Virus record (IMG/VR): IMGVR_UViG_3300011334_000360
Span: 1 to 32,789 of that record
Reading direction: 5' to 3' (one strand)
Origin: a virus
Taxonomy: Duplodnaviria; Caudoviricetes
Length of the DNA: 32,789 bases
Made by a program: the position numbers and the translations under genes. The notes below the pieces were generated by a model. It worked only from the letters and a program-made list of their open reading frames with translations. It searched no databases and was not told where the DNA came from. Shown here piece after piece: positions 5,584 to 20,435 of the stretch; position 1 is the stretch's first letter; each line of letters begins with the position of its first letter.

Positions 5584-5611
5584 TTGACTCCGCGCCCGAT
5601 TGTGCTACTTT
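5584..5611 (+). promoter_or_regulatory. promoter for sRNA-1
   Basis: TTGACT, 16 nt, TACTTT, with TG upstream of the -10. Confidence 0.55.
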
Positions 5612-5616
5612 TGCGC

Positions 5617-5763
5617 GTCTGCTATTGTTGAAAGTTGTCTCCATGACATGCGCAAGCTAGGCAATAAAGGACACATCTCATTTACCATGCGTAAAATGAG
5701 ATACGAACACGCTTAGGCGTTTTCAGCAGACCCCGTCAGCACCCACTGGCGGGGTTTTTGTTT
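5617..5763 (+). ncRNA. putative structured small RNA (sRNA-1) with three-way-junction motif
   Basis: GUCUGC/GCAGAC closing stem; core UAUUGU-UGAAAGU-UGUC(UCCAU)GACA-U-GC(GCAA)GC-UAG-GCAAUA; extra hairpin AUCUCAUUUAC/GUAAAAUGAGAU; no ORF; covaries with 7218-7262. Confidence 0.75.
5730..5763 (+). terminator. intrinsic terminator
   Basis: ACCCCGTCAG-CACCCA-CTGGCGGGGT followed by TTTTGTTT. Confidence 0.85.
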
Positions 5764-5806
5764 ACTTTCCCGCGCCTCAATTAAAGAGATTCGCGCTTTT
5801 GTTTAA

Positions 5807-6097
5807 TTAGTGCCATTTTGTGCGATAAACAAAGCAAGTCACAACAACATTGTCTTTCACCACAAAAACCCAATCCTCGGCAGTCGCGTAAAAATACCCG
5901 CTATTTTGATGAACTAGGTGCGCGTGATAAGGGCAGGTTTTACGAATCACCTTGCGCATCTTTTTCCCACATCGACGGCAACCGTTTTCCAGTCGCCGCC
6001 GCGTGTATTCATTATCGCATCCGTGGTATTCTTTCCATCGGTCAAGCGCGTGGTAAGACCATTTCCATAGTATCGGCTTTGAAACTGTAATTGTCAT
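5807..6097 (-). CDS. hypothetical protein with HA..RW.E nuclease-toxin-like motif
   Basis: WSYHALDRWKE...WVFVVKDNVVVTCF resembles small RelE/BrnT-like folds; inference only. Confidence 0.6.
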   Translation of the reverse strand: MTITVSKPILWKWSYHALDRWKEYHGCDNEYTRRRLENGCRRCGKKMRKVIRKTCPYHAHLVHQNSGYFYATAEDWVFVVKDNVVVTCFVYRTKWH

Positions 6098-6282
6098 TTC
6101 GTTCCCTTTCTCAAATCAAGCTCTCCAGTTCTAACGCCGTCAACAAAGGACTCGGTATCTACACCGTGCCAAGCGTTTTGATCCGTGACCGTATTCAAGC
6201 GCGATTCAGTCTTATGGCGAATGCTTTCAATCTCCGCAATGCGTTTCAGTATCGCGATTTCTTCAGGTGTTACTTTGTTCAT
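6094..6282 (-). CDS. hypothetical protein
   Basis: 62 aa, ATGA overlap with the downstream gene, leader GAAAGAACGATATG. Confidence 0.65.
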   Translation of the reverse strand: MNKVTPEEIAILKRIAEIESIRHKTESRLNTVTDQNAWHGVDTESFVDGVRTGELDLRKGTK

Positions 6283-6333
6283 ATCGTTCTTTCTTTCTTC
6301 TGTATTCTAATCTCCACGACAATCAGAGCGGGT

Positions 6334-6729
6334 TCAAAACTCCGTTGTTGCGAAAAATCCGCAATCTCTGCCGCTTGCAATATCTTTTTCAAGCTTTTGG
6401 CGAAACGTGAGCTTGTGTATATTCACCATGTCAACGTGTCCAATCGGATACCCGTGGTGACACTGCCATGCCGACCCGTTCCATCGACTGTAACCGTTTG
6501 GAGTTTTGCCGCATTCGCACTGCCAATGTTCAGGATGGCTTTCATTTGTGTTTTCACTATCCCAATAAATGAGCGAGTCCATCTCATTGTCTGTAATCGC
6601 TCTGGCATCTACAGGTTCAAAATTCAGTGTTGACTCTTGATAGAGAGCGATTGCTTGCTCTAGCGATTTGGCGAAATACCACTCGCAATCGTCAATTTGA
6701 TAAATCCATATTTCTTTTTCTGTATGCAT
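6334..6729 (-). CDS. hypothetical protein
   Basis: ATG 6729 (MHTEKEIWIYQIDDCEWYFAKSLEQA...); leader GAAAGAACAAACGATATG. Confidence 0.7.
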   Translation of the reverse strand: MHTEKEIWIYQIDDCEWYFAKSLEQAIALYQESTLNFEPVDARAITDNEMDSLIYWDSENTNESHPEHWQCECGKTPNGYSRWNGSAWQCHHGYPIGHVDMVNIHKLTFRQKLEKDIASGRDCGFFATTEF

Positions 6730-6994
6730 ATCGTTTGTTCTTTCCTTGTTTATTTCTGTACACAATTAGTCTCATAACCTCCCTAGAGCACACACGATGA
6801 GAAACAATATCTACCATGTGCTTTTATGATTCGGAAACCAGCCCCTTAGGAGTCAACCTCCTGCCACCTCTGCTTAGTCTCATGGTGACAACTCGTTAGC
6901 CCCTTTCGAGCGTTTCAAGCCTAGTGATGAGTGTGGAAGATTCACGTCTTCTCGCGGTGTCCTTTGTTTTGGTCTGTCTTCAGAATCGAACAGG

Positions 6995-7096
6995 GGAAAA
7001 TGAAAAGCCCGTTCGAGATACGACCTTCGAACGGGCTTCCAATGCTATTTGAACACACAGCAAGAAATCTTTGTTAGGCGGTCGTATCGCGCGAAC
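6995..7096 (-). ncRNA. leader A: terminator hairpin whose loop pairs with the transcript 5' end
   Basis: perfect 12-bp stem 7005-7016/7027-7038 plus U-tract on - strand; loop 7017-7025 is the exact reverse complement of 7080-7088; middle hairpin 7043-7062. Confidence 0.75.
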
Positions 7097-7102
7097 GAGA
7101 GA

Positions 7103-7130
7103 ATAATAGAACAAGATTGGGAAAACGCAA
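7103..7130 (-). promoter_or_regulatory. promoter for leader A and the leftward operon
   Basis: - strand TTGCGT, 16 nt, TATTAT. Confidence 0.65.
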
Positions 7131-7150
7131 GAAATAATTTTCAAGCGGTG

Positions 7151-7307
7151 AAAAAATATCTCCCAAAGTGTGCATCGTTGAGAGGCATGGGAGATCTGCT
7201 GTGATTGGAGACCCGCACCCGATCTAGCTTTCGCGATGACATGGAGTCAACTTTCAATCGGGGCAGGAATCCCACCTACTACGCGCAATGCTGCGTTTCG
7301 CAAGTTC
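7151..7307 (-). ncRNA. putative structured small RNA (sRNA-2), second copy of the three-way-junction motif
   Basis: core CCCGAU-UGAAAGU-UGAC(UCCAU)GUCA-UC-GC(GAAA)GC-UAG-AUCGGG; extended CCUGC/GCGGG stem; ends in AUCUCCCA/UGGGAGAU hairpin plus AUUUUUU. Confidence 0.75.
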
Positions 7308-7313
7308 GCGAGA

Positions 7314-7341
7314 ATAATACCAGAGAATCTGGCGAATTCAA
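7314..7341 (-). promoter_or_regulatory. promoter for sRNA-2
   Basis: - strand TTGAAT, 16 nt, TATTAT; TATTATTCTC shared with the 7103 promoter. Confidence 0.65.
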
Positions 7342-20295: not shown

Positions 20296-20323
20296 TTGCG
20301 TTCTGAAAAGTGCTGTGTAAACT
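20296..20323 (+). promoter_or_regulatory. promoter for leader B and the inverted cassette
   Basis: TTGCGT, 16 nt, TAAACT; same TTCTTGCGTT -35 context as the leader A promoter. Confidence 0.6.
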
Positions 20324-20327
20324 CGCG

Positions 20328-20435
20328 GCGACGAGAGGTCGAATTCATCGTTGTAAATTTTGCTCCATTACTCATGGCTTGGAGTTAAGGGCTAGCACAG
20401 GTATTTCGACCTCCTTGTGCTAGTCCTTTTTCTTT
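20328..20435 (+). ncRNA. leader B: terminator hairpin whose loop pairs with a 5' hairpin loop
   Basis: AGGGCUAGCACA/UGUGCUAGUCCU plus UUUUUCUUU; loop UUCGACCUC (20405-20413) is the exact complement of GAGGUCGAA (20335-20343); middle hairpin 20362-20385. Confidence 0.75.

Follow-up and report, generated by a model that had tools for sequence, protein, structure and literature searches.

A kissing-loop leader with a terminator-type hairpin ahead of large phage noncoding RNAs: a candidate antitermination gate

The window analysed here is a phage contig of 32,789 nt, taken at its full length and rated 89% complete, whose genes include those for a capsid, a terminase, Erf, an exonuclease and a DnaC-like protein. 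The capsid protein shares 54% identity with that of phage C75C1, for which no host is stated, and at most 33% with those of the other 14 phages among the matches listed. No relative of the phage was found in a GTDB scan, and a plasmid search gave no match to the stretch. Relatives were collected by pattern scans (11, 19 and 11 loci) and through the neighbouring exonuclease (62 loci) and capsid (80 loci) genes; the exact-pair pattern scan matched 11 viral loci, six of them homologous and five unrelated. Tyrosine integrase and serine recombinase domains were absent from all four complete relatives.

On the minus strand the locus comprises, in the direction of transcription, a small-RNA unit ending in an abiF motif, a leader (Leader A), a promoterless structured RNA and three small ORFs. 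A second leader (Leader B) lies elsewhere on the plus strand (Table 1). The leader cassette is accessory, being present at 38/75 capsid loci and 12/26 exonuclease loci with enough flank.

Table 1. Features of the two leaders and their surroundings in the window.
Feature	Position	Strand	Basis
Upstream small-RNA unit, separate from the leader; own predicted promoter, abiF motif (7194-7158) and U-tract at its end	7150..7341	-	Rfam RF03085
Predicted sigma-70-type promoter of Leader A, TTGCGT-16-TATTAT	7103..7130	-	sequence; promoter matrix
P1, weak 5' hairpin from the predicted +1, with a 9-nt segment in its loop	7073..7096	-	folding prediction
Segment a (GAUACGACC), kissing partner on the 5' side	7080..7088	-	9/9 match; compensatory variants
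P2, middle hairpin after an A-rich, then pyrimidine-rich linker	7043..7062	-	alignment
Terminator-type hairpin, 12 bp, loop carrying a' (GGUCGUAUC, 7025-7017)	7005..7038	-	sequence
Interrupted U-tract UUUUCAUUUU	6997..7006	-	sequence
Promoterless structured noncoding RNA of about 240 nt (type 1), conserved cargo; approximate ends	6755..6996	-	alignment, motif search
Three small accessory ORFs (6729-6334, 6282-6094, 6097-5807)	5807..6729	-	ORF calls
Leader B, same architecture as A; a = GAGGUCGAA (20335-20343), hairpin 20389-20426	20296..20434 (leader 20330-20434)	+	structure-only scan

A sequence-only reading of this DNA had described Leader A as a pseudoknotted attenuator, and all elements that it named are present at 7096-6997. 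The promoter, which a generic promoter scan missed, predicts a +1 near 7096; it is the top site of the window under our promoter matrix (PWM), though it was part of the training set, and such a promoter was found in 43 of the 47 distinct leader upstream regions. Given this predicted start, segment a begins at about +9, close to the 5' end as had been claimed, and its nine letters all pair with 7025-7017. The middle hairpin UGCUGU/AUAGCA lies at 7062-7057 / 7048-7043, and the 12-bp stem of the terminator-type hairpin is Watson-Crick throughout (7038-7027 / 7016-7005), with the loop AGGUCGUAUC at 7026-7017 and the tail UUCAUUUU. The U-tracts behind the hairpin are interrupted across the family. 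By the folding model, segment a forms the loop of the weak hairpin P1, so the pairing joins two loops in a kiss, an arrangement that has been proposed for guanidine-IV riboswitches; a P1 of at least 3 bp was predicted in 41/43 leaders. A hairpin of at least 10 bp with a 9-nt loop match occurred in 0/40 resampled windows, which held three hairpins in all, and the analytic chance of such a loop match is about 3e-4 per hairpin.

Covariation in homologues had been named as a check of this pairing, which is indeed kept under letter changes, here among close kin. Across an alignment of 12 A-type sequences, 99.1% of the kiss is paired and 2/9 of its pairs have changed on both sides, as have 3/12 pairs of the terminator stem. 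Cells with double changes numbered 15, against 4.6+/-1.6 after shuffling (0/500) and none in slid controls; taken by itself, the number of pairs with double changes does not reach significance (5 vs 3.2, 42/500), and the 12 sequences are close kin. The 5' strand of P1, GUUCG, can alternatively pair with the 3' arm of the terminator; all cells of the 12 sequences are compatible with this helix, and its changes are one-sided only. Divergent A-type kisses, in which most letters differ, are GCUGAUCCC in locus L096 and GCUAGCCCC in L118 and L133. An A-type covariance model run on 51 sources found nothing distant and missed Leader B.

Leader B, whose sequence is unrelated to that of Leader A, was found solely by a structure-only, sequence-blind scan that covered 184 sequences. 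A looser version of the scan gave one match in 462 kb of resampled sequence. The final tally, in which a promoter was required (a filter that excluded L118, L133 and L176), contains 146 matches at partly redundant loci and comes to 65 distinct leaders with 27 kiss sequences. The kiss is 9 bp long in 49 of them, 8 bp in nine and 10-11 bp in seven, the spacing from a to the stem is 48-63 nt, and no kiss position is invariant among 17 distinct 9-mers. In B-type leaders a P2 of other sequence is predicted. Six loci (L112, L118, L123, L133, L146 and L147) carry A-type leaders at the B site, so that the leader types are interchangeable. The idea of a fast-changing address was rejected, since 49 B-type leaders hold 19 distinct 8-mers in the kiss, 16 in the terminator arm and 34 in the P2 region, and so show no excess diversity. 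We also dropped the anti-Shine-Dalgarno likeness of some B loops, which is absent in L108, L160, L178, L179 and L181.

According to the sequence-only reading, the genes at 6729-5807 lie downstream of the leader, with no other recognisable promoter. The statement on promoters holds: the best family-PWM site between the terminator and the ORF at 6729 scores 6.9, and the window contains 290 sites scoring at least 6. That reading did not mention that the approximately 240 nt past the terminator are a conserved structured RNA. The genes thus remain downstream without another promoter, but the conserved cargo is the noncoding RNA, and the ORFs are swapped for other ORFs in relatives or are absent. 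Pfam gave no family for these ORFs, there was one weak match to an unnamed PHROG, and no match of at least 0.9 was found in the Atlas for the first of them (6729-6334). In L107, L135, L178 and L182 there is no ORF of at least 50 aa within 900 nt downstream. An ORF lies 34-40 nt behind the leader at Leader B of the window and in L104, L105, L111, L129 and L149, and in the window the ORFs follow Leader B after a 10-nt stub of a type 3 large RNA. We also observed A-rich segments ahead of the ATG that are repeated before accessory ORFs (window 6270-6330 and 6717-6744). The segment 6330-6300 is similar to the L016 type 2 RNA at its 3' end, which suggests recombination joints for cassette exchange.

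The type 1 RNA shows double changes at 7/66 predicted pairs in eight sequences, and its single-sequence fold is no better than shuffles (z -0.40). Across the family, noncoding RNAs of 240-330 nt and of five types stand behind leaders. Homology is seen between types 2 and 4, with E values as low as about 1e-8, and types 1, 3 and 5 show no cross-match, which leaves four groups; none of these had an Rfam match, type 5 included. When type 2/4 loci were searched by their own motifs, an intact leader stood directly upstream in 40/41 assessable copies (6/47 were truncated), and 14/15 viral copies of type 1 RNA lie directly behind an intact leader. Together, 54/56 assessable large-RNA copies have an intact leader upstream, an association that is inflated and partly circular, because the motif patterns were derived from leader-linked copies. 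Three exceptions were seen, namely a leader with a swapped terminator and no kiss (L089), a leader missing its 5' half (L102) and a leader with one kiss mismatch (L029), each with a large RNA behind it.

Some details of the individual types may be of use. The type 2/4 RNA, about 290 nt long, was found at 47 viral loci (L185-L231; 40 distinct copies aligned), often without a nearby ORF downstream. Type 3 (about 285 nt) stands behind B-type leaders in L107, L108, L110, L122, L128, L131, L138 and L176, and type 5 (about 330 nt), which has a hairpin resembling a tRNA T-loop, behind B-type leaders in L106 (8090-8420, minus strand), L113, L127, L134 and L135. Three GTDB pattern matches, considered as cellular homologues of type 2/4 RNA, had a best E of 0.51 and were rejected. 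Resemblances to an HDV-like ribozyme, a group I intron and omega-RNA found no support. Three sequencing runs with small shares, which consist of contigs only, were retrieved by this stretch and may contain DNA; their pieces lie mostly over noncoding stretches. One contig of 169 nt covers 6813-6981; being assembled, it shows no ends and is not evidence of expression. One RNA-library contig covers 7201-6738, and this is likewise not evidence of expression, as contigs cannot reveal single transcripts.

The unit upstream of Leader A has a promoter-like site at 7341-7314, and its abiF motif (RF03085) scored 41.5 bits against a cut-off of 37. It was the sole Rfam match in the window, Leader A itself being without an Rfam motif. 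Among relatives, the Rfam searches gave no match in 11 loci, four abiF matches in 15 loci and two in seven loci (E<=5). As described in the accessible part of PMC12373285, abiF RNA neutralises the AbiF toxin through direct binding, and in abiF loci the antitoxin RNA comes first, followed by a terminator and then the gene. An Abi_2 gene was found neither in the window nor in any of five relatives, of which four are rated complete and two (L027 and L030) carry the abiF motif. The abiF-motif RNA without a toxin gene is a candidate antitoxin mimic and may act as a decoy. The motif was also seen above the cut-off without an Abi_2 gene in L075, L080, L081 and L086, where L080 has two tandem units. 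The match of the stretch to cultured phages is restricted to this part, and 26-28 nt of the motif have matches in intergenic stretches of Salicola phage CGphi29 and of the Aeromonas phages PZL-Ah8 and PT2.

Small-RNA units are gained, lost and stacked among the relatives. Further promoter-RNA-terminator units were seen near leaders in L006 (2690-2800, plus strand), upstream in L106 and L110, in L118, and downstream in L075; some of the stacked units have abiF-like loops, and the arrays vary between genomes. In the window, a unit at 5584-5765 (plus strand) consists of a predicted promoter with a score of 12.1, a structured RNA of about 150 nt and a terminator at 5728-5757, which is turned towards the ORFs following Leader A as well; in relatives the body of the unit is exchanged and the terminator kept. 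A 9-nt match between the loop and arm of Leader A and this RNA (5608-5765) is within chance expectation and was discarded. An uncatalogued stem-loop motif of about 35 nt is present in two copies, at 7222-7257 (minus strand) and 5628-5661 (plus strand), each in a separate small-RNA unit. The copies differ by a compensatory change (UGAC/GUCA vs UGUC/GACA), and the exact pattern occurs at 11 viral loci on six contigs already tied to the phage family.

The folding models used here are nested, that is free of pseudoknots, and describe equilibrium, so kiss and terminator together cannot be represented in them. The best nested fold of the Leader A region is not the terminator; instead, the 9-bp pairing continues into the 3' arm of the terminator, giving one long helix (z -2.35). 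Two nested folds can be set against each other: P1, P2 and the terminator in one, and in the other the a:a' pairing, extended by the 5' strand of P1 into the 3' arm. After removal of duplicates and of six off-position matches of 7-8 bp, 43 leaders were folded. The read-through and terminator folds are close to isoenergetic, with medians of -32.6 and -33.2 kcal/mol respectively, and the read-through fold is the lower one in 23/43. Only A-type leaders extend strongly into the 3' arm, with -5.1 kcal/mol; B-type leaders reach -2.8 against -2.5 for cross-family pairs; overall, 7/200 shuffles were equally low.

A growing-chain model, in which 9 nt are kept in the hybrid, adds the aspect of timing. 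For Leader A the model predicts a:a' with a probability of 1.0 in chains of 90-96 nt, dropping to 0.48 when the chain is 99 nt long and to 0.01 once it has 105 nt. In the family, a:a' is predicted to be dominant at the U-tract in 51/65 leaders and in the whole chain in 2/65. Since at most one linker base separates the 9-bp and the 12-bp helix, we read the kiss and the full terminator as successive, competing states. Judging from this linker length, full coexistence of both helices is unlikely, and they are probably alternatives in time rather than one static pseudoknot. The earlier proposal of an RNA switch controlling read-through therefore keeps the backing of the covariation, the near-isoenergetic folds, the growing-chain model and a promoterless RNA in need of read-through, while the cargo has to be amended and the static pseudoknot probably gives way to states that succeed one another.

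With moderate confidence we propose that Leader A is a ligand-free, co-transcriptional gate, in which a kissing loop brings about antitermination ahead of a large noncoding RNA. The complementarity, the covariation, the second copy and the coupling to large RNAs are observed, and the gating is predicted from the folding models. As the folding predictions have it, the host polymerase would start near 7096, and P1 would fold and present segment a. Once the terminator loop emerges, segment a would capture it and the helix would zip into the 3' arm of the terminator. The hairpin would then be blocked as the polymerase reaches the U-tract, and transcription would continue, while molecules without the kiss would close the hairpin and release an RNA of about 100 nt. 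The fraction of read-through may be set by the race between kiss and terminator, and with it the amount produced of the large RNA and of any genes that follow, and whatever occupies or cuts segment a would be expected to shut the gate. A ligand is unlikely as the trigger because a conserved pocket is lacking in the sequences. The most economical candidate for an off-signal would be the short RNA itself, acting on new transcripts, and the short leader product is the remaining candidate RNA partner. P1 might also be the target of a protein or nuclease.

Other explanations have to be weighed against this proposal. In line with the compact nuclease-resistant sRNA that the sequence-only reading gave as its alternative, the terminated RNA of about 100 nt might be the working product itself, closed by P1, terminator and kiss, a stable decoy or sponge for which read-through is a leak. 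Its position in an array of small-RNA units that have their own promoters and terminators and are swapped as cassettes would suit this function, as would the neighbour with an antitoxin motif and no toxin, the accessory presence of the cassette at capsid and exonuclease loci and the order antitoxin RNA, terminator, gene given for abiF loci in the part of PMC12373285 at hand. We nevertheless regard it as unlikely: the A and B types have no common sequence, with P2 and the kiss free to vary, which would leave little for a protein to read, the near-constant placement of promoterless large RNAs behind the leader goes unexplained, and helices of 9 and 12 bp without a linker would hardly coexist in full. 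Alternatively, leader and downstream RNA may form one RNA of about 350-430 nt, with the kissing module as a 5' structural or protective domain and the hairpin mainly as a stabiliser or processing signal. The near-obligate adjacency, with few nucleotides between the U-tract and the next domain, the interrupted U-tracts and the RNA-library contig over 7201-6738, within the limit that contigs cannot reveal single transcripts, all agree with such a molecule. Against it, every leader counted has a U-tract behind its hairpin (as the scans demanded), each of the two leader types is attached to several RNA groups without detectable mutual homology, and B-type leaders also stand directly before ORFs, as in the six cases listed above, so that we find this reading quite improbable.

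Two further explanations concern the trigger. Attenuators under antisense control typically display complementary segments in loops. An antisense RNA encoded elsewhere, either a counter-transcript or a third matching site, could act on Leader A, and P4 CI RNA, which acts on seqA/seqC in the section of PMC4825925 available, would be a precedent. The best plus-strand promoter site in 6700-7060 scores 3.8 and a generic scan found none, extra exact copies of a leader's 9-mer occur at background level (0.16 per locus vs 0.14, 31 loci), and 4/4 whole records, two of them rated complete, hold just the two intra-leader copies. We regard this as the least probable of the readings considered. A small-molecule riboswitch of the guanidine-IV layout, whose ligand would stabilise the kiss, matches the topology of the guanidine-IV model. 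According to the accessible text of PMC7736828, guanidine-IV relies on highly conserved loop nucleotides, whereas here no position is invariant among the 17 9-mers. The duplex already amounts to about -13 kcal/mol, Rfam gave no riboswitch match, and the cargo has no metabolic logic, which makes this explanation very improbable.

The antitermination gate can be extended to a bolder case, which we put forward tentatively and consider rather unlikely. Ligand-free, self-addressed kissing attenuators might operate phage-wide, in that the terminated RNA of about 100 nt would display the terminator loop, pair with the first loop of transcripts newly made at its own promoter and close the gate by feedback. 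The 9-nt address would insulate cassettes and co-infecting phages from each other, and metered RNAs of 240-330 nt together with the toxin-less abiF RNA would form an RNA-based counter-defence array. The computed duplex energies, -13.4/-13.7 kcal/mol for cognate and -2.0/-2.7 kcal/mol for A-B cross pairs, indicate that A and B are orthogonal. The feedback stays a bold case because the diversity of the address is not above that of the terminator arm and because an intramolecular kiss could mask the loops.

If the proposed gate is true, transcription would be controlled by an exchangeable 9-bp loop-loop pairing alone, without a ligand pocket, a leader peptide or an antisense gene. Natural matched variants exist by the dozens, which makes the question of how a kiss blocks a terminator testable and offers orthogonal parts for synthetic regulators. 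Moreover, the leader is a search handle for four groups of large phage noncoding RNAs that are unmatched in Rfam, and accessory cassettes beside a toxin-less, antitoxin-like RNA would point to RNA-based counter-defence beyond the known RNA anti-CRISPRs.

On the evidence of the alignments, the leader is a real, covarying and uncatalogued RNA element. We found no description of it in the literature covered, with most subscription papers outside the search, nor in the accessible parts of PMC9964418, PMC5737381, bioRxiv 10.64898/2026.09.22.753630 and PMC10690425. A search combining kissing loop, intrinsic terminator, bacteriophage, leader and antitermination likewise returned nothing. Three motifs were absent from the covered part of the supplementary material of PMC10690425, and overlap with its unnamed candidates is possible.

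Among known systems, the guanidine-IV riboswitch (GGAM-1/mepA) resembles the leader in having two hairpins with proposed kissing loops, the second of which is an intrinsic terminator; in the model given in the available portions of PMC11611296 and PMC7736828, the kiss favours read-through, rises at the end of the aptamer and falls as the terminator is completed. The leader shares the pairing of a 5'-hairpin loop with the terminator loop, supported by covariation and the predicted P1. It lacks conserved pocket nucleotides and a match to an Rfam riboswitch model, and in place of guanidine-related transporter genes it precedes noncoding RNA and small ORFs that belong to no family. Unlike guanidine-IV, it shows no conservation of loop nucleotides, forms a kiss of 9 bp for which a ligand should be unnecessary, has an extra P2 and occurs in integrase-less phages.

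For P4 CI (seqA/seqC) and Gifsy-1 IsrK, the part of PMC4825925 that could be consulted describes one promoter that gives a short and a read-through RNA, complementary boxes in the leader, and a short or processed RNA acting in trans on the longer transcript. Our leader is likewise predicted to give a short and a long RNA from one promoter. In contrast to these systems it has two boxes alone, one of them in the terminator loop, with no third box and no Rfam match, and trans action is hypothetical; instead of a small RNA complementary to two flanking boxes, there is one a/a' pair per leader. The opposite-strand promoter of antisense attenuators was not found either. The abiF or type III-like antitoxin RNAs (RF03085; PMC12373285, as far as accessible) share the succession of promoter, small structured RNA, terminator and read-through cargo, whereas Leader A carries neither an abiF nor any other Rfam motif, is free of repeats and is not followed by a toxin gene, the abiF motif belonging to the upstream unit. 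DUF3800-I, drum, FuFi-1 as well as skipping-rope are also compact structured RNAs that end in an intrinsic terminator; as presented in the accessible part of PMC5737381, they are conserved in sequence and linked to particular proteins, while the leader is conserved in structure alone, linked to further RNAs and without an Rfam match. Leader A comes closest to an intrinsic-terminator attenuator, with which it shares a promoter-proximal GC-rich hairpin, a U-tract and a predicted, mutually exclusive alternative fold.
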